64,000 bases of DNA from Octopus vulgaris (GCA_951406725.2 OX597822.1:2170001-2234000); one strand, 5' to 3'; shown: positions 1 to 36,401, counted from the first letter of the stretch. Made by a program: numbers and translations. Notes: generated by a model from the letters alone, not told the origin.

Positions 1-1297
1 AAAACTCTACTTTCGGATAAGATAGATGTAAACCTAAATGAAATCAACACTACACTGAAAACTCTACTTACCAATTCAACGCCAAAGAGACCTCAGACAC
101 CACTCAACACACAGAAGGAACACATTTCAACCCCAGCACAACGCATTAAAAACCAGATCATCACTACTTGGACTAAGAAACTACACAACAGAAAACTTCT
201 CTTCTGGAACATGCTCAAAAACCAAAACAAAGCTGATATTTACGACAAATGGTTAAACTCCTCCCCTATCATACTACCCCGAAAATTCCAAATCAAACAC
301 ATCCCAGACGAACCTGAAAAACAACGCTCCCTAAGAGAAAAACTAACATTGGAAAAAATGAAAACCGAAGTAGAACTTCTAAAACTCAGAGCACAAAACC
401 ACGAACAAAAATACACAAAAATAGACGATGAGATACTTCTAGAACTAACCTCACACACCAACGAACAGCCCCTCGAACTTGTTATTAAACTATGGAAAGA
501 TGAATGTGAAAAGGAAGAACGAACCTCCCTCAAACGCTGGGAAAACAACAAAGATTTCTTCCTCAACTATGAAACACAATTCATATTAAACCATAAATCC
601 AAAAACCCATTCATAAAAGTACCCACAACACAGACTTCCACTGTACCCCATAAACACCATTCCAAACCGCACCTCAAATACACATACTCTCCAAACCCCC
701 TCCTAACAGGACACAACCTCCCCCAACCATATAAAAAACCCTTTCCCCCCGAAACATCTCAAACAAGACCCACCACAAAACCTGGTTTTCCAATCACTCT
801 AACACCCCTCCCCCACCGATTAGAACCTTCAAGAACCTCCCATACACTAGAAATTATCCCCCCTCAAGGCTCCCCTCCCTCACACTAATAACAAACAAGG
901 CATCCTACCCACACCGATACATATAAGACCCACCCAACGAACCCCCTATAGTCCACCCATCCAACAACCACATTCCTACCACATCTCCTACAGATCTCCA
1001 AACCCTCACATCCCACACGAACCCAATCACCACAACTACATACCCTCCTACATCCCCCCATACAATCTACCAGACACACACCCACAAACCCATCGCATTT
1101 CTCACAAAACCTTACACCATCGCATCCCATACCAACACAAATACGACAACTACCTACCCCCCTCCAACCTCCCCACCCAAAAACACTCCTACACATACAA
1201 CCAGAACTTTAACAAAGAATACACCCCTTACCTCAACAACCATTTTTTAGACAGGGGGAAAAATACAAACACCACCGCTAACACAGACCCAAAATAA
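1..1297 (+). CDS. PLE ORF1, 5'-partial: charged/coiled-coil-like N-terminal part then Pro/His/Thr-rich tail, with apparent frameshifts
   Basis: Frame 1 is open from base 1 to TAA at 886-888 (KTLLSDKIDV...EKQRSLREKLTLEKMKTEVELLKLRAQ...). A second frame is open 851-1297 and reaches ...YLNNHFLDRG. The frame switches lie near C-homopolymers. Confidence 0.6.
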
Positions 1298-3559
1298 GAA
1301 AACAAAAATTATAAACCTCTCCAGCAAAACACTGACACCAACCCAAATCAACATCCTAGCAAGAGGTTTGAAATTCACACCCACCCCAAGAACACCCAAC
1401 CCCCGGAGGTCAAGGATGACGTTTCTGAATTCTGCAGAAAACTTCGCCTAACAGAAGCTTTGACAGATATCAACAATGGGGACGATTCATTGATCAGAAA
1501 TAAAAGCAACTTCCTACCACCAAAAGGGAGAAATAAAACACTGGACGATTTCTGTAAACACATCCAGAGTCTCCCCTTTACCCCAAGCAAAACCAAGGTA
1601 AAATCCAATTTCAGTAAGGAAGAATGGGAAAACCTACGTGACATACAACTGGATAAAAACCTCACCATCAAAGAAGCGGACAAAGGGAGTGCTGTGGTCC
1701 TTATGGACACGGAATTTTATAAACACCTAGTGTTCTCCATGCTTAACAATAACATTTTCTATGAGGTTATTAACAACTACAAACAGCAAAAAACAATCAG
1801 AAACCTCACCACACTCATACGCCAACACGGCCAGGGACTCACAGAAAAAGAAAGGGATTATATCACCATTTTCAAATGCAAGCCCAGCCTTTTTTATGGC
1901 CTTCCTAAAATCCATAAAAACAAATACATCACCGAAGCCTGCAAACTCTCCACTGACATCCACATCAACATCAAAGCACCGGAGGACCTAAAACTAAGGC
2001 CCATCGTGGCGGGTACCTCCTGTGAAACACACCGCCTGAGTAACTTCCTAGACATCCTTTTGAAACCTTTCCTTACCCACATCAAAAGTTTCATTAGGGA
2101 TGATCTGGACATGCTCAAACACCTCCCGAAAACAGTTAACGAGGGGGCACTCCTGGTATCCTTTGATGTCATCAACCTCTACACCAACATTCCACATGAG
2201 TATGGTATAGAGGCAATTGACTTCTGGCTAGAAAAACACCCAGAGACATTCCCTGACCGCATTAACAAGTCTTTTATTACAGAATCTCTTAAGTTCATTC
2301 TGACAAACAATTTTTTTCTGTTCGACGACACACACTACCGTCAAAAATGTGGCATTGCGATGGGTACCAAGGCTGCACCAGTCCTTGCGAACCTCATAAT
2401 GGGTTACTTCGAACTGTCACTCTATGAAATATCAAGCCAGAAATTTGGACATGTTTTCCACACCTACCTAATGGAAAACTGGAAAAGGTATTTAGATGAT
2501 TGTTTCATCATATGGAAAGAACCTTATGATAAACTCCTGGAATTCAAAACCATACTAAACAACATACATCCCAACATCCAATTCACTATGGAATTTAGCA
2601 AACATCATCTCCCATTCCTTGATCTCCTAATTATAAAAACACCTAAAAACCAAATCATAACAGACATCTACCACAAACCTACAGACTCACAACAATACCT
2701 CCTCTTTAGTTCATGCCACCCAAAACACACCAAGACAAATATCCCTTTCAATTTAGCTAAAAGGGTATGCACCATTGTCTCGGATCCAAAAACACGAGAA
2801 ATACGCCTTCAAGACCTCAAAAAAACACTATTACAACGTCAATATCCCTCCACCCTTATAGAGTATGGAATAAAACGCGCCAAAGAACTAGACAACACTA
2901 CACTGAAAACCACCCAACCTAACACCACACACAACCTCAAAATACTTCCATACATTTCCACCCACAACCCCAAAAATATCGAAGCATACACCACAATCAT
3001 ACAAAACCTCAGTCTACTGTCAACAGACCCAAAAATGAAAAACATTATAAATACACACAAAATCCTCAAATGCAAAAGGCAACACAAATCTTTAAAAAAA
3101 CTCTTGACAAATGCCAAACTTCACACACCACATCCACCCCCAACAGTAAAAAAATGTGCACGCTCAAACTGTGGTACCTGCCCCTTTCTACTTGAAGGCT
3201 CTGAATTTACCTTCAAACAAGGTACGAAGTTTAAAATCAAGACTAACTTCTCCTGTTCCTCCGAGAACCTTATCTACGTTCTCACATGCGCTGGTTGCCA
3301 ACATAATTATGTGGGACAAACGAGTCTCCCGTTACGTAAACGAGTAACGGTGCATAAAGAACAAATAAATCTCCCGGAATACCGACAAATTCCACTGAGT
3401 GACCACTTAGACTCATGTGCCAAAGACTTAAACCCCAAATTCTATATATTCCCCTTCTACCAATGTAAAGACGGGATCACCACACAGGAGAGAATTAACA
3501 AGGAGAATCTCTTTATTGAAAAATTCCAAACACAACTTAATATGCAAACTCCTCGTTGA
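1251..3559 (+). CDS. PLE reverse transcriptase plus C-terminal GIY-YIG endonuclease (one frameshift near 1402)
   Basis: KIINLSS...LARGLKFTPTP (1305-1388) is in a different frame from EVKDDVSEFCRKLRL, which runs into the 699-aa ORF 1460-3559. Motifs: IKEADKG, FYGLPKIHK, LRPIV, SFDVINLYTNIP, GIAMGT, RYLDD, LPFLD, YHKPT, Neptune-like Cys linker CARSNCGTC, and GIY-YIG NLIYVLTCAGC..YVGQT..RVTVH. Confidence 0.95.
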
Positions 3560-4196
3560 TCAAACTTCCTTTCTCTACCTCACTCTTCATGGATGGACTA
3601 ACACAAATATATAAAGATACCATGCATTCACCACTTCAAGCTAAAACTTATATTCTTTAAATATCATTTTCACTATTGTTGTTGTTACTACTATCATTTT
3701 TATTATAGATGATATGACAATTTGAAATGCAATTGTCTATGCAGTTTTATATTATTAGAAAATAATATAAATAAAGTGTTAAAATCTGAAAGTTAAGTTA
3801 ACAAGCAATTATATATAAAAAAGATAATGCAAATGAAGCTAAAATGATAGTTTTATAATTTGGGTTTTATTGAAGAACTCAAAAGAGTTTTCTCCCCTTA
3901 CTCACAACACAGGAACTGAAGAACCAGGACCACAATTACTACTACTTCCTGTCCTGCAACATGCTGTATTCAACAACACAACACATCACATGCTCTTAAT
4001 CCCTTTGGATCTTAACACCTCAAGGTAACTTTTTGGTAAACAACCATAAAACTCAAGATACACAACGAACTCACAATGTATCGGAGAACTTATTTTTTAA
4101 TTTTTGTACATTTTTATCATTATTCTTTTACAAAAAACATTGCAATTTTCTTTTTTTCCCCTTTCTAATTTTCAAAAAAACTTCTTAAAACATAAA

Positions 4197-4237
4197 TATT
4201 CTTGACAAGTCATACATTGACGAAAACCGGTTGAATA
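4197..4237 (+). ncRNA. Minimal type I hammerhead ribozyme motif, U3-A8 core variant
   Basis: tattc-TTGACAA-gtca(tacat)tgac-GAAA-accgg-TT-gaata. Stem I tattc/gaata, stem II gtca/tgac, palindromic AACCGGTT. One extra A relative to canonical GAAACCGGTH. Confidence 0.65.
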
Positions 4238-4374
4238 AATATATATATTTATATATTTTATCATTTTCTCATTTTATTAAAATTTTATTTCATTTGAGCA
4301 TTCTGCATTTTTAAAAAATTTTTCCTTACTATATATATATATATATATATATATTTTATTTATTATATAGAAGG

Positions 4375-4425
4375 AGCTTCTACAGGACTAGAACTGTTTC
4401 ATTCAAGAGAAATCATCAGGAAGCT
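4375..4425 (-). ncRNA. Type I hammerhead ribozyme (left arm copy)
   Basis: Exact reverse complement of 6931-6981. Confidence 0.85.
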
Positions 4426-5445
4426 AGTTAACAAGAATTCTTTTGGCATTTATACATTTAGGCAGGTTTAAAGGGGTGGTGGTGGGGGACTTTTTTGGGG
4501 TAGGCATAGCGCAAAAATATCATACTTAGGGGAGTGGTCAAGGAGTCAGTGGTAAATTAGATAAAATAATAAATAAAAGAATAAAAAAATAAATAGAAGA
4601 ATAGAGTTTTAGGTAAATAAGGAGACTCTCACTTATACATATACACATATGTATATATATACACACACACACATATACATACACACATATATATATACAT
4701 ACATATATATATATATATATACATGTATATATACACACACGCCCACACATACATATACACACAAATATATACATACACACACATACACATACACACATAC
4801 ACACACATATATATACATACACACATGCACACACATGTCCATATATACACATATATATATATATATATACATATGTGTACCTATACATACCTACACATAC
4901 ACACATATATACATACTCATACAAACCCATTCCCTTATTTTAATTTTATTATTATTTTCATTTATTACTTTTGTTATCTTTGACCGCGGTCACAAGCATC
5001 TTGGCTATCGTCCCCCTGGGGACGACAGCAAGTCCATTTATCTTTCTACTCGAACCCAAGCACTCACTCACGCACGCACACTCATTCGCACGCACACACA
5101 CTCATTCGTACACTCATACACATACACGCACGCACGCGTTATATTCATACATACATACATCTACATGCATTCACATATATACACATACGTACGCGTACCT
5201 ACAGATTCATGTCTACACGCTTACACATACATACCTCAATACACCCACAGAAGACTAGTCCATACATATACACCAATAAATATATATACACATATACATA
5301 TACACCTACATACACATACATACACATACACATATATATACGTATATATACATACATATACATACACCTATACATACATATATACACATACACACACCCA
5401 TACATATACATATACATACACACATACATACACATACATATATAT

Positions 5446-5490
<45 letters not shown>

Positions 5491-5966
5491 CACATATATA
5501 TATATATATACATACACACACATACACATATACATGCGTAAACATACACACACACACACACGCGCATCCATATATACACATAAGTACACACATGCGTAAA
5601 AGTATACATATATCTATACATATGCTTACACATACACACACACACACGCGCCTCCTTATGTTCATATACTTACATGCATACTCAAAAAATAAATAATAAA
5701 ATATATATACATGCAGTTATTCATATACATACATGCATACTCAAAAAATAAATAATAAATATTAAATATATATACACATATACATGCAGTTACCTATTAT
5801 ACAGACGGATACATACATATAAACTTACACATATATACCTATTTACACATATGTATATATACATACATACATACATACATACATAACTCTACGTACCTAC
5901 ATATACATAAACACACGAGCGTACACGTATATGTACATATACACACATACATACATATACATATAC

Positions 5967-6003
<37 letters not shown>

Positions 6004-6614
6004 CATATATATGTATGTGTATGTATGTGTATGTAGGTGTATATGTATATGTGTATATATATTTATTGGTGTATATGTATGGACTAGTCTTCTGTGGGTG
6101 TATTGAGGTATGTATGTGTAAGCGTGAAGAGATGAATCTGTAGGTACGCGTACGTATGTGTATATATGTGAATGTATGTAGATGTATGTATGTATGAATA
6201 TAACGCGTGCGTGCGTGTATGTGTATGAGTGTACGAATGAATGTGTGTGCGTGCGAATGAGTGTGCGTGCGTGAGTGAGTGCTTGGGTTCGAGTAGAAAG
6301 ATAAATGGACTTGCTGTCGTCCCCATGGGGACGATAGCCAAGATGCTTGTGACCGCGGTCAACGATAACAAAAGTAATAAATGAAAATAATAATAAAATT
6401 AAAATAAGGGAATGGGTTTGTATGAGTATGTATATATGTGTGTATGTGTAGGTATGTATAGGTACACATATGTATATATATATATGTGTATATATGGACA
6501 TGTGTGTGCATGTGTGTATGTATATATATGTGTGTGTATGTGTGTATGTGTATGTGTGTGTATGTATATATTTGTGTGTATATGTATGTGTGGGCGTGTG
6601 TGTATATATACATG

Positions 6615-6649
<35 letters not shown>

Positions 6650-6930
6650 GTGTATATATATATGTGTGTATGTATATGTGTGTGTGTGTGTATATATATA
6701 TATACATATGTGTATATGTATAAGTGAGAGTCTCCTTATTTACCTAAAACTCTATTCTTCTATTTATTTTTTTATTCTTTTATTTATTCTTTTATCTAAT
6801 TTACCACTGACTCCTTGACCACTCCCCTAAGTATGATATTTTTGCGCTATGCCTACCCCCAAAAAGTCCCCCACCACCACCCCTTTAAACCTGCCTAAAT
6901 GTATAAATGCCAAAACAATTCTTGTTAACT

Positions 6931-6981
6931 AGCTTCCTGATGATTTCTCTTGAATGAAACAGTTCTAGTCCTGTAGAAGCT
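6931..6981 (+). ncRNA. Type I hammerhead ribozyme (right arm copy)
   Basis: agcttc-CTGATGA-t-ttc(tctt)gaa-t-GAA-ACAG(ttctagtc)CTGT-A-gaagct. Stem I 6 bp, intact core, stem III 4 bp, GUA triplet with predicted cleavage after 6975. Confidence 0.88.
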
Positions 6982-7197
6982 CCTTCTATATAATAAATTA
7001 ATTTTACTCTGCTATGTATTGAGTACCATATTTACTGTGGTTAACCCCGAATCAACCCGGGACCTACATATATATATATATATATATACATGCATAAGTA
7101 CCATGAATTCCCATGCTACAAACTGGCAAACAACTCCGTGAATACTTTACCGGGCAACGCTGGGTAGTATATATATATATATATATATATAAATATA

Positions 7198-7343
7198 TAT
7201 TTCTTTACTACCCACAAGGGGCTAAATATAGAGGGGACAAACAAGGACAGACAAATGGATTAAGTCGATTACTCGACCCCAGTGCGAAACTGGTACTTTA
7301 TTTATCTACCCCGAAAGGATGAAATGCAAAGTCTACCTCGGCG
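7198..7343 (-). mobile_element. tRNA-derived SINE family A (Meta/MESC-like core), 3' part
   Basis: Reverse complement contains catttcatcctttcggggtagataaa...gtaccag...tttagccccttgtgggtagtaaagaaa, shared with many copies in the window. Confidence 0.8.
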
Positions 7344-7431
7344 TATAAATATATATATATATATATATACACATATATATATATACATGCATATATATAT
7401 ATGTATATATATATATATGTATATGTATATG

Positions 7432-7488
<57 letters not shown>

Positions 7489-7506
7489 GTATATATATAT
7501 GTATGC

Positions 7507-7554
<48 letters not shown>

Positions 7555-8116
7555 CATGTATATATATATATATATATATATAAATATATATATAAATAGA
7601 CACATATATATAATTGATCGATTGAACATGCAGACAGTGGACATGCGCAATGGACCATTTCCAACGAATATAAGCAAACAAATTATCTAATGCCAATAAT
7701 TCTTCATTCTTTTGTTTCATTTCTGTTACACTCCGTGATTAACACCCCATGCCGTTAATAGAAGTGTCTCGAATTTACAATGTGCATCTGTCACATGGTA
7801 CGAATAACACATACGGATTGCAACACACTTCACTTGTCCTTTTTGTTAGACTATTTTCTTAAACGGGATGCTTTGGATGACATTCGTCTAGATACACTCA
7901 ATACCTATATCTCTTCATTCTGTGTATGTGTATAACTATATTCTTAAAATACAAAAGAATACAAAGACGACATGAAAAATAACAGATGGTATGTTAGTTT
8001 ATATGTATACATAGAAGGAGGCCATTTAAACACACAGACAGACAGACACAAACACACACAAACGCACATACACACACACGTACATACACAATCATATATA
8101 TGTGATATAATATATT

Positions 8117-8148
<32 letters not shown>

Positions 8149-8180
8149 CATATATATATACATATATATATATATCTACA

Positions 8181-8225
<45 letters not shown>

Positions 8226-8226
8226 A

Positions 8227-8270
<44 letters not shown>

Positions 8271-8334
8271 TATATAAGATGAATTAAGAACAATAATAGT
8301 GAAGAACGAACTTATAGTCCGAATGGTCCGAAAT

Positions 8335-9321
<987 letters not shown>

Positions 9322-9322
9322 G

Positions 9323-9387
<65 letters not shown>

Positions 9388-9985
9388 GTATATATGCTGG
9401 CAATATTAGATTGCAAGGAGGGAAATTTCTGAGCTGGCAAAATGGTTAGTACGCCGGTCAAAATATTTAGCACCATTTCGTCCGTCTTGATGTAGTGAGT
9501 TCATATTCATGCGCGGTCGATTTGCCATTCATCATTTCTAGGGTCGAATTTAAGTAACTTGCCCTCCCCCACTCCCGAAATTGCTGGCCTTGTGTCAAAA
9601 TTAGAATCCAATATCAGAATGTAACGTATAAAGTGTGTTTCTTCTTTATGTAGCTGAGATAAGACATGTACGGAGAAACTTTCATATTTCTGCAAAGTAT
9701 TTACATGAAGAATTAATAATCTTAAATTATTGCCAATATTTTCATAAGTTTCTTCTAAAATATTGGCTAGTCCCCCCACCAACCACCCACATGGATTAAT
9801 AGATGACAATGGCAAATTTCATTTATATAATAACATTTTAATCCGACGGCTTTCTTTACAACTGGCTACATAATTCCCTTTCTAAATTCTCCCTTCTGTT
9901 TTATATATTAATTTACGTTCTTGTATATTTTACAATGAGTGCAACCAAGTATATTTCCATGTAAGTATTTACCAAACTTCTTTTG

Positions 9986-10180
<195 letters not shown>

Positions 10181-12060
10181 ATTTCTCTGTCATTTATGTC
10201 TCTCTATCTCTCTCTCTTTCACTCTAAATATATATATATACATATATATAAATACATATGTATGTATATATATACATACACATGCGCACACACACATATA
10301 TATTTATATATATATACATACATACACACACACAAACATACACGCACACACACACACACACACATATATACACACATTGTTCATATACTTTCCAATTCTT
10401 ACATCATTCTTTTACTACGCAGAAGAAATAACTCAACAGAAAAATATTTATACGTGATGAGATGTTCTCTTAAATGATTTTTTAAAACCCAGCACGCAAG
10501 CGTAGAACCGTTCTTCTTGCGAAAACAGTTTCCTTAAAATCCTGAAGATACTTAAAATATAATTAGGTTTGAAACTTGATGTAACATTTATACGTTTTTG
10601 CGATTTTTCTCATAGAGAACATGTAAACACCTTATACAATATGTGCATATATGCATTCACATAGAAATACATATACGAAAACGTGTATGCATAATAGATT
10701 GTACCGACTAGCATCTTACACTTATACGTCTTTGCTGGTCATGTGTGTTTATATTTCTGCTGAATAGGATGGTTTATTACGAAATTTGATATCCTAAGTT
10801 AAAATGGCTGACTCTACCAAAATATACAAAAGCTTTTAAATGAAACGAAATAAACAAGAAGAAAAACATAATGCAGTAAGAAAAACAAGCTGCGCAAAAC
10901 ACTGAATCAATATTTCTATTTTTAACAATATATTAATTTTAAATTTTATTGTGTTATATACTATTTTGTGTCGTGTATTTATATATAATTTTTATGGCGA
11001 TTAAATAAAGAGGAGATTCAGGTGAAGGTAGGCAAAAAAGAAAAGAAAAATGTCGGAAAGTTAAAAGTACATTGGCAGCCATTAAACACTACAAGAAACC
11101 TTATATTAGACTATATGCGTGCGTGTTCGTGTGTGTGTGTGTGTGTGTGTGTGTTTGTTTGTGTATGTGTTCGTGTGTGTGTGTGTGTGTGTGTTTGTGT
11201 GTGTAAGTAAAAGACAATAAAAATATATAAAGAAATACAAAGGAGACGAGAACACAACTGAGGCAAAAATAGCAACAATACATATATGTTACAATGACAA
11301 GAACATTACGAAAATGAAGGCTGTATACACAAATACATACACACGCACATACACACATATACACACATATATACACATATGTTTATGTATGTATGTACGT
11401 AAATTTATATGTATATATATATATATATGTATGTATATATATGATATATATATATATATTACATTTGAATTTCTATATATAGGATATACATGTACATATA
11501 TGTAATAATATATGCATGCAGATATACATAATTACATGCACACACAAACGTACCCACACATATAAACACACACACACATATATATATTTATCTTATATAT
11601 ACAAATGCAAACGTATGAATGTATGTAGGTACGTATGTATGTTTGTCTGCATGTGTCTGTGTATGTGTATCTGTGTGTGTGTGTGTGTGTAACAGATGTA
11701 ATGAACAAAGAACATTTTAGTATCTTGGCATAATTTCACAAACACATTTGAAAGTTCTGTTATCGGGTCTTTTGTTTGTTTAATATAAATTGCAAACTTC
11801 TCGATGACTTGTTTGTATAATTTTTGATTTCTTTAGAATTCAGAATAAAAACAATATGTTTTTATTGTACTTGTTGTTATTGCTGATGTTGACGTTGGAC
11901 TTTTTGTTGTCGTTGTCGTTGTTTTTGCTGCTTGCTGTTGCTTTTGATAAAGTTTTAGGCTGTTATACTGACTGTTATACTATTCATCTTGGCTTTGCTG
12001 TTATTTGCTTATCTCTAACTGATTTTAACGACGTTTTATATCAAACATATTTATATACTT

Positions 12061-12128
<68 letters not shown>

Positions 12129-12181
12129 ACACGCATACACACACACATACACATACACATACACACACATACACACACACA

Positions 12182-12258
<77 letters not shown>

Positions 12259-12969
12259 ACATACACACATACACACACACACATACACACACATACACAT
12301 ACACACACATACAAACATACACACACATACACACATAAACACACACACATACATATATATATTGATGCAAGAGATAAAACGATATATAATACCGAGTTTC
12401 CAAGGACTGCCATGGTTGGATGATAGAACGAGCGTCATGTATTCAGTAGAGGTTATCCAAAGAGTTTTTCTACCCAATGGTTAACTTATTTTTCATAGCC
12501 TCTTACCCTTCGAGTTCCTCCGAGAAACACAAATAATTCTCACATCTCTCGCAGTTTCAAAATTCATATGACCTCAACAACATACAGTTTTCACTGCTAA
12601 AACCAAAGCTTCCAAAATGAACAGAAATTTCAGAATTATTGCGTTTGTTCATTGGTAGCAAGCCAGTCATATTTACAAGACAGGTGTGTTCATACCCTAC
12701 GGGAATCTTTCAATTTTGTTTTTTCTATCCAAAATTATTCTCAACCAAATAATTATTTGCTATTATTGTATCACTGGATAATATCTAATTTATTGTAGCT
12801 TTAGTTTCGACCCAGTTATTTTTGAGTTGAAAATTGCCATAAATTCTAGTCGAATGTTTTTCTCGAAAAGTTTTCATTTCCTTGTGTCGTATTCCCAAAA
12901 TATGTCTTACGGTATACGACGACGACGACAACCACCACCACGACGACCACCACCACCACAACGGTGACG

Positions 12970-13035
<66 letters not shown>

Positions 13036-13294
13036 GCTACTACTACTAAAACCAAAATCATTACTGCGTTGGACAAAAGTGCTTTCACGGCATTTTTTCT
13101 GCCTTTGTGTTCAGAGCTCAAACTTCGTTGTTTGTCCCCTCTATGTTTAGCCCCTTGTGGGCAATAAAGAAATAAGAAATAAGAAATAAGATCTACTTTG
13201 TCTTTCATGTTTTAGGGTCCATAAATTAAGTAACAGCCAAATACTGGGACCGAAAATTTCCAGCGTTGTACCTTTAGTAGAAGGGATTATTACT

Positions 13295-13505
13295 GAGCTA
13301 ACAGAATCGTTAGCACGCCAGCAGAATCGTCATCGGTATTTTGTCAGTCTTCACGTTCTGAGTTCAGATTCCACCAAGGTCGACTTTGCTTTCATCCTAT
13401 CGCGGTCGATAAATTAAGTTCCAGTGAAACACTGGGTGTCGATGTTATCGACTAGTCCCCTCCCCCCAAATTTCGGGCCTTGTACTTTCAGTGGAAAGGA
13501 TTATT
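13295..13505 (+). mobile_element. SINE family A, with a rearranged copy at ~13080-13290
   Basis: gagctaacagaatcgttagcacgcc...gttctgagttcagattcc...gtcgactttgctttcatcc: tRNA-like A/B boxes plus core. Confidence 0.8.
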
Positions 13506-13579
13506 GTTGTTGTTCTTTATTTTTATTTTTACTAACGCAATCTTCCGCTAAGTATTTTCTTTCTTTCTCTCTTTCTTAC

Positions 13580-13987
13580 TCTTTACTTGTTTCAGTCATG
13601 TGACTGTGGTCATGCTGGAGCACCGCCTTTAGTCGAGTAAATCGACCCTAGGACTTATTCTGCCGAACCGGTAAGTTACGGACGTAACCCCACCAGCATC
13701 GGTTGACAAGCAATGTTGGTGGGGGGGGGGGGAAAGACACACAAACATATATACACATATATACATACATACATACATATATAAAATAAAATAATATATA
13801 TATATATATATATATACATATATACGACGGGCTTCTTTCTGTTTCCATCTATCAAATCCACTCACAAGGCTTTGGTCGGCCCGAGGCTATAGTAGAAGAC
13901 ACTTGCTCTAGGTGCCACGCTGTGGGGCTGAAACCGGAACCATGTGTTTCATAAGCAAGCTACTTACCACACAGCCACTCCTACGCC
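13580..13987 (-). mobile_element. tRNA-derived SINE family B (CORE-like), near full length
   Basis: Reverse complement matches the + copy at 41080-41461 (ggcgtaggagtggctgtgtggtaag...gactgaaacaagtaaa). Confidence 0.85.
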
Positions 13988-14639
13988 TAGTATACAATAA
14001 TAATTGTGTACCACCATACTTTTCTTGTCTGTCAGATTTATATTGTTTTATTAGTTTTGTTATAATTGTTTATCTTTTATCATTAGTAAGATTGTTATGA
14101 TTAATATGATTATTCCTATTGTTCCTCATATATTTTATTGTTACTTCTGCACAATTTCCTTTTATACCCGATAACTTCATTTGATTAACAATAAAATCAA
14201 TTTAAACTGAACGTGATAAGGAACAAAAATATTTCTTCCCTTTTGTTTAATCCCTTACTTTCGTGTTTATTAATTTCTTAAAGCTCTGAAAGTTAATAAG
14301 TATAATACTCAAATTGTTAAGCAATATGATTAGTTTAATAGCACCTGGGTTTCAATTTTAGAGATAACTTGACTGAATTATATCAAGGTGAAATTGGTGC
14401 AAAAATTGTTTCTATCACAACTTACATAAAGGTTATTCTAGTTCTGCTTTTTCGATGTACGATCGATGGAAGCCATAAACGAGGTTTAATTTGCTTAACG
14501 CGGAATCATTCTTGAAAGGAAATTACGAATCATATTTGCCGACATAGTTGTTGTCGTCAATAACAACGGCAACAATAACAACAACAACAAAAAACGACAA
14601 CAACAAAAACAACAACAAGAACAATAATAATAATGATGC

Positions 14640-14670
<31 letters not shown>

Positions 14671-14671
14671 T

Positions 14672-14822
14672 TCGGTGGAGTGGGCTAATCGATTACATCG
14701 ATCCCTCACTGATACTTAATTTATCGACCCCTCGGTGGAATTTGAACTCAGAACGTAGCGACAGACGAAATACTGCTAAGCATTTCGCTCGGCGTGCTAA
14801 CGTTTCTGCCAGCTCACCGCCT
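14672..14822 (-). mobile_element. SINE family A
   Basis: ggaatttgaactcagaacgtagcg...gctaacgtttctgccagctcaccgcc. Confidence 0.8.
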
Positions 14823-14832
14823 TCCTTGTGTC

Positions 14833-15252
<420 letters not shown>

Positions 15253-15548
15253 CCTTTCTACAAAGCTTGAAATTTGGTGAAAAGGAATGAGTTGATTACA
15301 TGAACCCCAGTACTCAGCTGGTACGTATTTCATCGACCCAGAAATTATGAAAGGCAAAGTTGTCCTTAGCGGAATTTGAGATCAAAACAGACGAAATGAC
15401 GCTAAGTATTAACCTTTCGGCAAAAGAAACCGATAGAATTAATTCCAGGCTTTAAAATACAAGTCCCGGAGTTGATTTGTTCGACTAAAATCCTTCAAGA
15501 CGATGTACCAGCATGGCCGTAGTCAAAAGACTGTAACAAGCGAAAGAA
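15253..15548. mobile_element. Degenerate SINE A (-, 15253-15410) abutting SINE B 3' part (+, 15412-15548)
   Basis: Motif similarity to better-preserved copies in the window. Confidence 0.65.
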
Positions 15549-15649
15549 AGTACAAAATAAAAGTATTAAATAGGCAAGTTGTTATTCAAAATCAAACATT
15601 AAAAAGAACCTGAAGAGGTCATCTTAAACGAAATTTCTTACTGCGATCT

Positions 15650-15840
15650 ACAGATCTACGCACAAAGGAGATTTTGCTGTGGATTTCATGAAATACAAGA
15701 GGTGTGACTCACTTCGAATTTTCGGAAAAGGCAGAAGATGTCACTGCAGAATATTATCGCCAACAATTCAAACGTGTCAATCAAGTTTTGCCCAAAAAAC
15801 ATCCAGTTCTGAGCAGAAGGAAACGCTTTGCATGGCCATC
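15650..15840 (+). pseudogene. Mariner-like transposase fragment
   Basis: THFEFSEKAEDVTAEYYRQQFKRVNQVLPKKHPVLSRRK resembles the mariner HFELL...TITAEYYCQQL...P....RK segment. Confidence 0.55.
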
Positions 15841-15942
15841 TTACGAATTCGAAAAAGTCTCGTGTAAATTTCAACAAATAACCAGATCATAATTCTTTAA
15901 ATCACTGCCTAATACCTCTAATCGCAATACAGGCATAAGTAC

Positions 15943-16172
15943 ATGCATACATACATACATACATACATACATGTATGCATACATACATGTATGCATACAT
16001 ACATACATACATACATACATACATACATACATACACACACACATACATACAAACACACACACATACATACATACATACATACATACATACATACATACAT
16101 ACATGCATGCATACATACATACATACATACATACATACACACACATACATACATAATACATACATACATACA

Positions 16173-16204
<32 letters not shown>

Positions 16205-16266
16205 CATACATACATACATACATACATACATACATACATACACACATACATACATACATACACACA

Positions 16267-16302
<36 letters not shown>

Positions 16303-16396
16303 TACATACATACATACATACATACATACATACATGCATGCATACATACATACATACATACATACATACACACACATACATACATACACACATACA

Positions 16397-16432
<36 letters not shown>

Positions 16433-16500
16433 TACATACATACATACATACATACATACATACATACATACATACACACATACATACATACACACATACA

Positions 16501-16536
<36 letters not shown>

Positions 16537-16570
16537 TACATACATACATACATACATACATACATACACA
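15943..16570. repeat. (TACA)n microsatellite
   Basis: Direct reading. Confidence 0.95.
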
Positions 16571-16604
16571 TAAATCTATTAACGTGTATAACTATGCAAA
16601 TGCT

Positions 16605-16639
<35 letters not shown>

Positions 16640-16759
16640 GCATATCTGTTCATCTATTCATCTTTCTGTCTACTTACATATCTGTGTATGTTTACATAGA
16701 CACATATGTATAGCTACAGACATGTAAATACCTACCTACCTACCTACATACATACATAT

Positions 16760-16815
<56 letters not shown>

Positions 16816-17111
16816 ACACACATATTAAGCGTGTATCTATTTATAAGGAAAACAATATGGTCGAAAGCTACGGTAGACCGAGTTGATGAAGTCTGTTGTC
16901 ATAATTAATGTCAAATGTCTATGTTCTTGACACCAAAATATCTGCATCACTACGCGAAAGAAATAGTCTACATACCACAAGCAAATATACTTGTGTGTTG
17001 ATCAACAGCGTGGAAAGACATCTCAGCAACATAATCTGAATAGCTATGTCTGTTATACGTTAACACATACAGATATCGAACGGAAAGAGAGAGAGACAGA
17101 GACAGAGAAAC

Positions 17112-17146
<35 letters not shown>

Positions 17147-17371
17147 GAGACAGAGAGAGAGACAGACAGATAGAGAGAGACAGATAGAGAGATGGCGGAG
17201 AAGGAGTGATAGAAAAAGACATACACCTATTCATACACAATACATTTTCACGTATGTAACACAAAACTGAATAGACATAGATATACAGATGTATCTATGT
17301 TTTGTATAAACACATACATACACACACATACATAAATATATATGTGTATATATATATATATACATACACGG

Positions 17372-17413
<42 letters not shown>

Positions 17414-17731
17414 TGAGAGAGAGAGAGAGCGATAGATACACGCATATATTTATATGTATAATTGCATATGCACGTATATATATATACATACACGGAAATA
17501 TATATATATGTGTGTATGTGTTTGTTCGTATACACATGCATCAATATACGTTGGATCGCGCAGTTATTCCTAGGACATAAGTAATTAGATGTTTGTTTAT
17601 GTATATATAAGTAATTATACATGAAATACTATATAAGGATGCATCAAGTATTTTCCATTCACATATCGGTCTTTCACTTATCTTAGCGTTGTTTCCTAAT
17701 GCTCTTTTCTCTCTCTTTTTCTCTCTCTCAC

Positions 17732-17812
<81 letters not shown>

Positions 17813-17864
17813 GCTATCTATCTATCTATCTATCTATCTACCTATCTATCTCTCTCTCTATATT

Positions 17865-17900
<36 letters not shown>

Positions 17901-17971
17901 CATAAATATATATATATATTTTATATATGTACATATACATACTTGCATATATATATATATATATATATATA

Positions 17972-18028
<57 letters not shown>

Positions 18029-18037
18029 TTACATATA

Positions 18038-19680
18038 CTAGCCGAATCAGCGCCTTCCGGGCGGTCGACTCAGCTAGTACATATCTAAACTCATGTTCAT
18101 AGTTTGAAAGTAAAAAATGAAACTTACTATAATTTTTGTTAAGAATTTCCTTATAGACAACGTTGTCAGTGTAGATTCTTTTCATACCCTCATACCCCGA
18201 GTCCAAAGCCAATATATGCACATTTTTCCCAGAATCAAAGCAAGTATATGATCATTGTTTCCAGAACCAAAGCCAATATATGGTCATTGGTCCCAGAACC
18301 AAACAAAGCTTCCATTATCTTGGTCCCCTTTCGGTTTTGTTGTCATAGTCTTGCTTTCCAAACTCTCTCTCACAAGAGCCATTCCAGCTTGGAAGCACTC
18401 CCCCCTATAAAGCCAAGGCGAGCCACTATGTAATGGCGGAAGAAAGATTTTAGACCCTACGCCATTCATGTCCCCATTTGCAGTAGCATTCAGAAGGCCC
18501 TGGATCTTTTCAGCTTTAAATTGTTTCTGATGAGTTCTCAAGAAGTGTAATCGATCTTTGCATATTTATCTTCTGCATATCGGTTGCATCAGGTATCTAT
18601 TTTTCATTATGTCACCCAACTCGTCAAATCTTACATGAAGCCGGTAAGAATAAAAGTCACATTCGGTGATGTTTTTGCTTCGGTCATTGTCTTTCCAGAC
18701 CACATTCCAGCCATCTTTCCCTTAGGGAAACAGAAATACATAATGAAGAGGGTCACAGCTTCTGTGCATTTGACTAATGTAGTCTAACTTCCCATTGCGC
18801 TCTCTGTACTCTACAACAACATCCGCAGGTTTAATGTTTGGATTATTGGTACCATCTCCCACCATGATCACAGCAGCTTCTGATGCGGTCGATGGATTAT
18901 AGGTTCTCTCAAGTGACCCAGCAGGAATAAGCTGTTTGTTATGAATTATAATATCACTGGTAGAACATTTTCTAGGTGCCGAGTATTCCTTAATTATATC
19001 AATAACATGTTTAAACTTTTGAATTATGAATTGTGCATTTGCAGTGCTCTCTGCAAATTTTGCAGGATGTTCTCGTTAAGGTCATTGTCAGCTCCTCTGA
19101 ATGACAACCTGTTTCTCATCTTATTTTCAGTGTCAACAAAATCTAGCTGTACGTAGACTGGTTTCCTATTAACTGCCGGTAGGAGACTTCCGATGCGGCG
19201 GTACAACTTTCCTTGAATCTTGAAAGTAGGCATAAAAGTGCTGCTACCCTGTGGTCCAACTGGTGGATTATCCAGTCCAAGTGACGCCATAGCCAGTAAA
19301 TTATTGTAGTCTCGAATTTTGTTCAGAAACATTTGACCGCATAGATTAACATCATACTACTTGGCTATTAATTCTGGGCGCTTTTTCTATCTGTGGAACA
19401 TTGCCATTGTTAATTTTTCCTTTGCCACATCAGAGGGTAGTTTTCTCAGCACCGCAAAGGTAAGCTTTGCAGTCAGGGTGGGTTCTGTTAAAAATGTTTC
19501 CACAGTAGTGCAACATTAGGCTTAGGTTTCGTTCTTTCTCATGAAAATCTACCACATCCAACTTCCATAGATCCATTTTACCAGTGGCAGTCCTTTGCTG
19601 ACGAATTCGCGATTGATATCGTACTTAGCTGTTTGTTTGTTGCTGCTGAATTTGTGGCAGCGACGTGTTCTCCCGAACCT
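18038..19680 (-). mobile_element. Helitron remnant (degenerate Rep N-terminal region plus 3' terminus)
   Basis: FLNKIRDYNNLLAMASLG..FMPTFKIQGKLYRRIGSLLP..YVQLDFVD; ISQMHRSCDPLHYVFLFP*GKDGW; IFLPPLHSGSP..FQAGMALVR. Minus-strand hairpin cgcc(cggaa)ggcg lies 9 nt before terminal CTAG/T at 18038-18041. Confidence 0.85.
18200..18305. repeat. ~32 bp minisatellite, about 3 copies, inside the Helitron
   Basis: ccagaa(t/c)caaagc(c/a)a(a/g)tatatg(g/a)tcattg repeated. Confidence 0.7.
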
Positions 19681-19689
19681 TGCTATTTT

Positions 19690-19786
19690 AGAAGACACTT
19701 GCCCGAGGTGCCACTCAGTTGGACTGAACCTTGAACCATGTGGTTGGTAAGCAAGCTTCTTACCACCATATGACCGCATCTGCGCC
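19690..19786 (-). mobile_element. SINE family B, 5' part
   Basis: agaagacacttgcccgaggtgcca...gcaagcttcttacca. Confidence 0.75.
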
Positions 19787-20062
19787 TATATATACGTACA
19801 CACATGTATACGTACATATATATCGTGAACTGTTACTTTCTCAGATACAGCACGGGATTTTGTCAGTGGTCAGGTCGCGGTCTCAAAACGACGAAAATAT
19901 TTTGGCAAATTAGATTTAAATGTTGAACTAAATTTAACGGTTTATGTGTGTTTTTAAATGGCTCATAAACACCTTCCCCGCTGCAATTGCTTTCTTTCCA
20001 GCACACGATCTCAGATCAGGTCACTTCTTTGCAAGTACATCTCCGTAATATATATAAATAAT

Positions 20063-21650: not shown

Positions 21651-21690
21651 TTCAGTACCGGTTTCAGTCATTGAGACTTTTTCAACTGAA
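21651..21690 (-). ncRNA. Minimal type I hammerhead ribozyme, U3-A8 core variant
   Basis: Minus strand: ttcag-TTGAAAA-agtc(tcaat)gact-GAAAC-CG-GTA-ctgaa. Perfect stems I and II, palindromic ACCGGT, GUA triplet. Confidence 0.8.
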
Positions 21691-33900: not shown

Positions 33901-34704
33901 ACTGGATTACTATCACTACTTGACTTCCAACTGAATATAACGGAAGAAGAGAAGATCCACACCGACTTCTACAGCAAAGCAGCCAGTAAAGATATGTTTG
34001 TCCAGTACAATTCAGCATTTCCACTCGGTGCCAAAATAGGATACGCCAGAAATGAACTTGCACGCATCCAGGACAAGTGCAGCAGGACAGAGGACAAGGT
34101 GACCCACACAACATGCTTCCTAGATATACTGAAAACCAACGGATAGCCTAGATCCATTGTAAATCGGTTTAAGTACCCAAGACGACCAACACGCCGAACG
34201 CATAGAAAACCCAGCAACACATGCTTCCTGAAAATACCCCATTTTAGCGAGAGGATAACTACAGCCATCCGAAGAGCCATAAGAAGAGAAGGGCTAGACA
34301 TACAACTAGCCCACTCTGGCCCCTCTCTGAGAAGACACCTCGCAAAGAAACGAACAAGGGACAACATTCAATGTACACTAACAAATTGTCCCATTCGTGA
34401 CATAGATTTATGCGAAAGGGTAAATGTTATGTATAGAATACAATGTAACAAATGCAACAAGTTCTATGTGGGTAGCAGCTCAAGACTCCTACACGTCCGC
34501 ATCAAAGAACATCTGAACACGAGAGCCTCCTCCTTCAGAAAACATCTAGACAGACGCCGGAACACCGACAAAAGCACAAGAGTCACAATTGAGGCCAATG
34601 ACAGATCTTTGGGAAAATTTAGAATTAAGGAAGCTATATTCATACACAGGCTAAGGGTCCAAATTAACAACAGACTGGAGGTTGGTAATCAATATATTAT
34701 TTAG
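33901..34704 (+). pseudogene. 5'-truncated PLE of a second lineage: RT thumb plus GIY-YIG, one internal stop at 34144
   Basis: SLLDFQLNI..TDFYSK..YNSAFP..NG*P..LKIPHF..CTLTNCP..LC..VMYRIQCNKCNKFYVGSSSRLLHVRIKEH..IKEAIFI..QINNR. Confidence 0.85.
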
Positions 34705-35023: not shown

Positions 35024-35063
35024 GATATCTGAAGAAGGAATTTTTATTCGGAAATATCATATC
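35024..35063 (+). ncRNA. Minimal type I HHR-like motif in the 3' UTR of the PLE at 33901
   Basis: gatat-CTGAAGA-ag-gaat(tttt)attc-g-GAAA-ta-TC-atatc. Stem III is reduced to one pair. Confidence 0.55.
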
Positions 35064-35394
35064 AGACTATGCATGATTACATTACAACAGTTATTATAGC
35101 CCATTGTTGTTATTATAGTGCATTGTTCCGTCATTCTTTACAAACATGCATGTCTCTAGGTGCAGGTCCTAACTGGTGGAGGTGCTTGCCTCCCCTTCGC
35201 AAATATAAGGACACAGGAAATGTGTCAAAGCCGACAGGAAGCGTCGATGGCTAAATAGGGCTAAATAGCGGTGGTGTAATTCCCTTTACAGGACTGTCAC
35301 GTTAAGTTGACTGTATACAACCACTCTCTCTCTCTCTCTCTCTCTGTATATATATATATATATGTGATAGATAGATAGATAGATAGATAAATAA

Positions 35395-35448
<54 letters not shown>

Positions 35449-35477
35449 TGATAGATAGATATATAGATATAGATATA

Positions 35478-36023
<546 letters not shown>

Positions 36024-36401
36024 AATTGATAAATAACTTATATGCATACATACATACATATATGTACGTACCTACATCTACATGTATATACACATGCATA
36101 TATAAATATATATATATGAGTACAGGACACCACAAATAGACGTAGAACTCAACGAGAAACGAAAACGTAAAAACAAACATGGAAACGAACTTTTTTTAAC
36201 AACGAAAAAACAGGGTACACGACAAACAATACAAGGAAAATTCCCCTTCATCAGCTGTCCCTAGTTCGACTCCATGCGTATTAATTTATTGCATGACTGA
36301 GCGCCCTCGCGTCGTTTCGTTTCTTTTCTGTTCTCCAAGTAAGTTTTTATATATATATATATATTTGAGTATATGCATATATATATATATTTGTATATAT
36401 G

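Follow-up and report, generated by a model that had tools for sequence, protein, structure and literature searches.

Results

A long palindrome lies between two TA runs

The window, by which we mean the whole 64-kb stretch of Octopus vulgaris DNA that was analysed, comes from an animal genome rich in AT and in microsatellites. Near its left end a Penelope-like element (PLE) is followed by a palindromic element that is bounded on both sides by TA runs. A sequence-only reading had put this element at 2.6 kb; the palindrome was confirmed, the length had to be corrected to 2.71 kb (4358-7067). The features of the locus, with their basis in brackets, are:

1-4329, plus strand: PLE of apparent Neptune/Nematis type, outside the palindrome, with a 770-bp 3' UTR (protein comparison, Pfam, motifs)
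4197-4237, plus strand: minimal hammerhead of the neighbouring PLE, a U3-A8 core variant with G10.1-C11.1 and a palindromic AACCGGUU stem III (sequence)
4330-4353, no strand: left target run, (TA)12, at which the neighbouring PLE ends on its 3' side (sequence)
4358-6004, minus strand: long copy, about 1.65 kb, with a tail-less 3' end at 4358, CA-rich on the plus strand including the spacer (arm alignment, strand composition, family boundary)
4375-4425, minus strand: type I hammerhead motif in the long copy, with the same sequence as 6931-6981 (arm alignment)
5338-6004, minus strand: unpaired 5' part of the long copy (the "spacer"), microsatellite and minisatellite, its assignment suggested by strand composition
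6001-6016, no strand: head-to-head junction, a 16-bp palindrome without mismatch, whose (AT)4 core is compatible with either copy (sequence)
6005-7067, plus strand: short copy, about 1.06 kb, with the tail (arm alignment)
6308-6341, plus strand: GC-rich hairpin in the body, with its mirror at about 5001-5034 (folding)
6733-7056, plus strand: 3' end lying in a large, diverged repeat family, pLTR-like (contig alignment)
6931-6981, plus strand: type I hammerhead motif of the short copy, predicted cut after 6975 (sequence, folding)
6999-7067, plus strand: optional 69-nt tail, with a small stem-loop with an A/C-rich loop at 7046-7061 (arm alignment, contigs, folding)
7068-7088, no strand: right target run, (AT)10 (sequence)

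Local alignment of 4300-5700 with 5700-7100 showed that 4358-5330 pairs with the reverse complement of 6998-6012, giving a left arm of 973 bp, in agreement with the near-identical arms of about 970 bp first proposed. The arms are about 99% alike and differ by 10 substitutions (3 transitions and 7 transversions, about 1.1% divergence) and by 4 indels of 4-10 nt, every one in dinucleotide repeats; over their non-repetitive outer 282 bp the identity is 98.6% (E 2e-141). The extra 7-8 nt of (AT)n at 6005-6012 are compatible with either arm. If the published octopus calibration applies (distance 0.09 for 25 million years, PMC13282606), the arms would, very roughly, have diverged for 1.5 million years. 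An extension before the (TA)n was likewise found on the right arm only, and measures 69 nt. On the left, four T (4354-4357, non-repeat) stand between the arm and (TA)12. With (TA)n flanking both sides, a target-site duplication is unreadable within such a repeat.

Alternating purine-pyrimidine runs make up 53% of the element, against 16% of the whole window. As the earlier reading had stated, the element is without coding capacity: 120 PLE proteins gave no tblastn match in 4358-7067, and the long ORFs inside it are microsatellite read-throughs. An ORF for RT plus GIY-YIG is absent, so that the element is not an autonomous PLE. A search of 1-20000 against Rfam returned 186 matches; those among the 150 listed were microsatellite-driven, miRNA-like and below the gathering score.

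The element reads as two copies with their 5' ends together

On the plus strand, CA dinucleotides dominate 4600-6000 and TG dinucleotides 6000-6720, the only flip being at about 6005. Because this switch coincides with the 16-bp palindrome, the 667-bp spacer is read as a continuation of the left arm. The composition thus suggests that the element consists of a long minus copy (6004 to 4358) and a short plus copy (6005 to 7067). The (AT)4 core of the junction is a possible microhomology; a palindrome easily arises by chance in alternating DNA. Within the spacer, a 59-bp unit is repeated 2.2 times at 5663-5785, and no second hammerhead was found there. The body folds at a z of -3.7 over 6270-6400, and 6255-6420 gave four weak, chance-level matches in Rfam. 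Neither the GC-rich hairpin nor the unique parts of the body have a further copy within the 64-kb window.

The 3' end belongs to an abundant repeat family

The region 6720-7066 was present in 20 of the 24 runs listed, under four organism labels and from nine studies, including some runs of only 30-50 million letters; no listed run is recorded as RNA. Contigs of 4 of these 20 runs (X1, X2, X4 and X5) were aligned on 6696-7120. The pieces, mostly less than 99% alike, numbered 13,935 (X1), 1,710 (X2), 2,901 (X4) and 425 (X5); they cover 23 of 29 bins and are clipped at the repeat-like 6696-6732 and 7057-7120, and their summed depth is not a copy number. No piece spans the aligned stretch or either outer junction. 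The expectation that the 3' end is multi-copy was thus borne out for the outer ~330 bp in all four runs (425-13,935 pieces per run).

Loose ends of the contigs reveal where the family stops; the counts come from 24 of 293 rows and are lower bounds. Behind 6998, at least 20 contigs of X1, at least 14 of X2 and at least 12 of X4 run into (AT)n, as do at least 2 contigs of X5 behind 7002. The exits into (AT)n at 6998 show that family copies can end without the tail, at the very base that terminates the left arm. Both outer ends of the palindrome are therefore 3' ends of one repeat family, one at the 6998 boundary and the other 69 nt beyond it.

That the left arm breaks off precisely at this boundary of the family speaks against both a fold-back of the DNA at a later time and a chimera made in assembly. 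If a single PLE end had inserted and a repair fold-back had later duplicated about 1 kb beside it, the microsatellite-rich DNA, the 16-bp palindrome at the junction and the presence of a second palindrome (~330-bp arms) at 35348-36022 would fit, but the duplicate ends at the tail-less 6998 and is followed by (TA)n, and repair has no reason to stop there; we consider this origin very unlikely. Hardly credible is a fold-back artefact of the assembly. It is true that no contig crosses the palindrome (the contigs cover 6696-7120 only) and that 7 of the 10 arm differences are transversions, but the variation of the family is likewise transversion-rich (10 of 17 changes in X1). Moreover, the arms are separated by 10 substitutions and 4 slips, 667 bp are unduplicated, and the arm runs up to a biological boundary, beyond which the DNA is different.

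A further class of loose ends, before 6931, is the reverse complement of 6935 onward (at least 24 contigs of X1 and 5 of X2). Judged from these joints, other family members also appear to carry head-to-head junctions, in the form of small palindromes that have the AGCT of stem I as their fold point. Members that fold back at this AGCT form palindromes of about 200 bp, and the AGCT is a candidate self-priming site. Loose ends at 6850-6852 and 6912-6916, found in all four runs, mark a related subfamily that has a different upstream sequence and the same hammerhead start.

Variability was scored per position with a 5% threshold, the power of which drops near contig ends. Positions varying at 5% or more amounted to 20 of 198 upstream of the ribozyme, 3 of 51 within it and 1 of 17 after it; in the tail there were none among 58 covered positions. 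Within the ribozyme, N7 (with A making up 70-84% of the summed depth) and two bases of loop II vary; all three belong to the 13 positions that are neither paired nor part of the core (chance 0.014). The pattern of variants suggests that the hammerhead is characteristic of the family and is kept under constraint. Conservation extends over the entire 3' end, so that part of the constraint signal is not ribozyme-specific.

Searches of the published papers listed no description of the family that contains 6733-7056, and none of a kilobase microsatellite body in any PLE family of animals.

The hammerhead motifs are conserved and predicted to be weak

Both hammerhead motifs face outward. Each has a stem I of 6 bp, a CUGAUGA/GAAA core, a stem III of 4 bp and GUA as the cleavage triplet, which in the short copy ends at 6975. 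Across the family the core is CUGANGA, stem II consists of a U·U plus 3 bp, and loop 3 has 8 nt holding CUAG. The canonical CUGANGA, GAAA, NUH and three stems are thus all present; the G10.1-C11.1 pair, described as highly conserved in hammerheads (PMC4209133), is not. Positions 10.1/11.1 are instead U·U (6944/6955), for which no variant at 5% or more is listed in the four runs, and the 3-bp stem II that is left is worth -0.1 kcal/mol. The motif had been called intact: this holds for the core and for stems I and III, but not for the closing pair of stem II, and 6720-7066 had no Rfam match at E<=10. A hammerhead pattern scan of metagenome contigs, bacterial and archaeal genomes and viral contigs gave 0 matches.

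It had also been proposed that the 4-bp stem III would let the ribozyme cleave as a monomer. The predictions point the other way: the stem III hairpin alone is worth only -1.4 kcal/mol, and a dimer is favoured (-25.2 kcal/mol against -14.6 for two monomers); the CUAG palindrome in loop 3 is invariant. There is also a precedent in the axolotl HHR_Amex2, which has a U·U and is reported to cleave 22% as a monomer in an hour and far better as a dimer (PMC7229834). In isolation the predicted active fold lies near the minimum (-7.3 against -7.6 kcal/mol), while in 100-350 nt of native context stems I and III have a predicted probability of about 0.01 or less.

Folding predictions for an RNA that covers the full palindrome have 963 of 994 right-arm bases engaged with the left arm; the antisense arm takes up all 51 bases of the ribozyme (-93 against -7 kcal/mol). 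As the antisense copy would be transcribed first and would pair with the whole ribozyme, a self-cleaved hairpin is implausible. Of the hairpin with a self-cleaved end that had been envisaged, the long hairpin thus stays plausible if the locus is transcribed, but the self-cleavage does not, the ribozyme being predicted to be blocked. Folding models therefore suggest an activity that would be weak, likely as a dimer and on tandem source transcripts, not in the hairpin of this locus. Between the arms there was no ADAR imprint: 2 of the 10 differences are A/G, in opposite directions, with no A-to-G excess.

Animal non-LTR retrozymes are described as tandem 150-450-bp units with same-strand type I hammerheads (PMC7229834; bioRxiv 10.64898/2026.07.22.740005). 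The palindrome resembles them in its type I hammerhead, its non-coding nature and its high-copy end, and the U·U recalls the axolotl HHR_Amex2 (PMC7229834). However, each strand carries one sense hammerhead, 2.5 kb from the antisense one, and among the contig joints listed for 6696-7120 there is no joint of a short tandem unit (contigs show presence, not absence). Lacking two same-strand hammerheads, the palindrome locus offers no circle to excise. The proposed retrozyme-like nature thus fails on the definition, tandem same-strand hammerheads being absent at the locus, and we regard an animal retrozyme spreading through circular RNA as a most improbable source of this element.

A Helitron or MITE reading of the palindrome was rejected: its outer ends are asymmetric, and its arms end at PLE-type positions.

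The neighbouring PLE is a separate element

The neighbour encodes, at 1298-3559, an RT (Pfam RVT_1), a CX4CX2C linker and a GIY-YIG domain with two inner Cys, and its protein is 41-67% identical to the 120 relatives listed. By the description given in PMC8557442, these sequence features would place it in the Neptune/Nematis type. It had been called autonomous; as assembled it is not intact, since its RT-EN ORF is frameshifted at about 1385-1400, where 49 of 120 homologues match both frames. The frameshift is either a mutation or a homopolymer error. Upstream of the RT ORF, 1-888 (plus strand) holds a 5'-open ORF of 295 aa with no Pfam match, which may be an optional ORF1 or the N-terminal part of the neighbouring PLE. 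The 3' UTR is not microsatellite-rich.

The supposed link between palindrome and neighbour did not survive: there is no DNA similarity, the ribozymes are of different types, and the neighbour is frameshifted. The two have only a target run in common, and the 3' end of the palindrome element has no match to the neighbour or elsewhere in the 64 kb.

Other features of the window

The U3-A8 core variant, which has been described for hammerheads (PMC4209133), occurs twice in the window, in minimal hammerheads with a palindromic CCGG stem III at 4197-4237 (plus strand) and 21651-21690 (minus strand). The second has no detected ORF nearby, and the AT-rich stretch and (TA)n behind it recall a solo PLE end. 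A decayed fragment of a PLE endonuclease region lies at 33910-34668 (plus strand; 25 of 120 proteins match, best E 8e-7), with a degenerate hammerhead-like motif 360 bp past it (35024-35061, plus strand). The palindrome at 35348-36022 has (GATA)n outer ends, unique 150-bp parts inside and a (TA)n centre; no hammerhead was seen in it, and it is possibly a MITE or a tail-to-tail pair. At 36120-36345 (minus strand), a short unit between TA runs contains half a hammerhead core (CUGAUGA plus stem II, with a broken GAAA) and is likely another PLE end.

Just beyond the right target run, 7090-7167 (plus strand) is a 78-bp unit between two TA runs that ends in a GC hairpin plus TAGTA, with a fold not above that of shuffles; we take it to resemble a Helitron 3' end. 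It is followed at 7183-7340 by a SINE-like repeat that is matched at nine other places in the window (74-92% identity), and 7190-7340 is presumably an octopus SINE.

Discussion

The palindrome is best explained as a PLE insertion

All together, the features of the palindrome make it very probable that it is an insertion made by a PLE. It has an inverted, 5'-truncated copy placed head to head with a second one, a tail at one end, a terminal hammerhead motif and a dispersed, multi-copy 3' end. The PLE origin, the inverted partial copy and the tail on one copy had all been put forward from the sequence, and the arm structure and the family end at 6998 now support each of them. Likely, two non-coding copies of a high-copy repeat end were laid down head to head in a TA run by one retrotransposition event. 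By analogy, from the (TA)n target and the literature, the mobilising PLE was probably of the Neptune type.

This layout is familiar. Craig et al. describe an inverted 5'-truncated copy beside the 5' end, a 30-40-bp tail that is often at one end, and a (TA)n target bias of Neptune and Naiad (PMC8557442); Arkhipova et al. describe the head-to-head arrangement, junction palindromes, microhomology joins, captured host DNA and non-coding DNA moved between pLTRs (PMC3846280); and hammerhead pairs on opposite strands are reported near truncated PLEs (PMC4209133). In vitro, Frangieh et al. found for an anole PLE (PAc) that both target strands are nicked and extended, that two reverse-transcription start sites are separated by the tail, and that ribozyme cleavage is dispensable (PMC11167929).

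From the in-vitro behaviour of the anole PLE and the published insertion layout, the following mechanism can be proposed. An RT-endonuclease supplied in trans would nick the (TA)n run, and one cDNA would be primed from each of two start sites separated by the tail. Both cDNAs would stop early in the microsatellite-rich RNA, after about 1.65 and 1.06 kb, and a short AT microhomology near 6008 would serve to join their truncated ends. As the end of the left copy coincides with the start site of the family, the RNA that was copied must have included the microsatellite body. The copy at this locus is a dead end and has neither a tandem unit nor a same-strand ribozyme pair.

Some observations sit less well with a PLE insertion: no coding partner was found within the window, the tail has 69 nt against the published 30-40 nt, no contig spans the locus or the link between family end and body, and the non-repeat bases 4354-4357 part the left end from the TA run.

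Where the microsatellite body came from

Within the PLE insertion, the body may have come from one of three sources. One, which we entertain tentatively as a real possibility, is that body and 3' end make up a non-autonomous PLE family of their own, free of ORFs and dependent on a borrowed Neptune-type enzyme. At least 1.65 kb are without a coding trace, the 3' UTR of the neighbour has just 770 bp and is not microsatellite-rich, homology reaches at least 6733, and non-autonomous PLEs of Chlamydomonas offer a precedent (PMC8557442). On the other hand, only the outer ~330 bp are multi-copy in the contigs aligned on 6696-7120, the unique body parts occur once in 64 kb, and there is neither an upstream tandem pLTR nor a full unit.

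The body could also be 3' UTR of an autonomous PLE family, swollen to this length by microsatellites, with both copies truncated before the ORF. PLE insertions are described as mostly 5'-truncated (PMC8557442, PMC8969392), the hammerhead lies 86 nt from the end, much like the 92 nt of the neighbour, and the summed depth, which is not a copy number, drops from the ribozyme toward the 5' side. Such a UTR would however be, at 1.65 kb, twice that of the neighbour, and tblastn revealed no C-terminal remnant of an endonuclease at the inner end; we consider this source possible but doubtful.

Unlikely, in our view, is a capture of host DNA, in which transcription would have read through from host sequence into a solo PLE 3' end and the resulting RNA would have been retrotransposed. 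In Adineta vaga, Pen1 contains captured spacers of 0.9-1.5 kb and a host gene was moved between pLTRs (PMC3846280), and the body does resemble the ordinary microsatellite-rich DNA of the window. But capture requires a source locus, and none is seen in the window; also, though weakly, the structured GC-rich hairpin looks more like a feature of an element.

A bolder, speculative proposal, which we think rather unlikely, would see here a parasite of Neptune-type PLEs that is ORF-free, very abundant and so far undescribed. Its body of at least 1.65 kb would be half microsatellite, and each jump would lay two inverted arms at (TA)n, spreading simple repeats and seeding kilobase perfect hairpins; the hammerhead, with its conserved U·U and long stem III, would add a new variant to those known in nature.

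Significance

The palindrome shows the anatomy of a PLE insertion with textbook clarity, and population contigs display both 3' end positions together with a constrained tail and a constrained ribozyme. The locus agrees with the two-start-site model derived from in-vitro work; this is an agreement and no test of the model. Should the body prove to be a mobile family, it would provide a mechanism for the spread of simple repeats and the formation of long hairpins in a microsatellite-rich animal genome. If such a microsatellite-spreading family is real, its kilobase hairpins would be natural substrates for RNA editing and small-RNA pathways.

Comparison with known systems

As in the insertions of EN+ PLEs (Penelope/Poseidon, Neptune, Nematis, Naiad) described in PMC8557442 and PMC3846280, the 5'-side copy is inverted and 5'-truncated and there is a palindrome at the junction; an optional tail at one end, a hammerhead near the 3' end and a (TA)n target, as in Neptune and Naiad, are further likenesses (PMC8557442). 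Unlike the EN+ PLE insertions published there, the element has no ORF and no tandem pLTR, its arms of about 1 kb are mostly microsatellite, and its tail has 69 nt in place of 30-40. The Poseidon of Anolis carolinensis, PAc, likewise has two 3' end positions separated by the tail, an AT-rich target and, as a resemblance only, an A/C-rich stem-loop near the outer end; its hammerhead and tail overlap an ORF start, whereas the tail of the palindrome has no open frame from its ATG (PMC11167929).

The hammerheads resemble the PLE-associated ones of Cervera and de la Pena 2014 (PMC4209133) in being type I, with a palindromic loop 3 and opposite-strand pairs, and they share the U·U at the base of stem II with HHR_Amex2 (Cervera and de la Pena 2020, PMC7229834). 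They differ from those of PMC4209133 in that G10.1-C11.1 is missing and in that the opposite-strand pairs there are 100-700 bp apart, here 2.5 kb. Stem III has 4 bp with an 8-nt loop, while 1-2 bp are given as typical of animal hammerheads (PMC4209133, PMC7229834). With animal non-LTR retrozymes the element shares its non-coding nature, the type I hammerhead and a PLE-related end; unlike them it has, at the palindrome, no 150-450-bp tandem and no same-strand hammerhead pair.

Movement of non-coding or foreign DNA by PLE cis-ends is described for the non-autonomous Chlamys PLEs (such as MRC1, PMC8557442) and for the Pen1 spacers and Pen3a-mobilised host DNA of A. vaga (PMC3846280). The palindrome is similar in this respect; host lineage and target differ from these cases, and the multi-copy evidence here covers the outer ~330 bp only. 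The layout is thus one already described for PLEs, and what is unusual in this locus is the kilobase microsatellite arms, the conserved 69-nt tail and the U·U, long-stem-III hammerhead.
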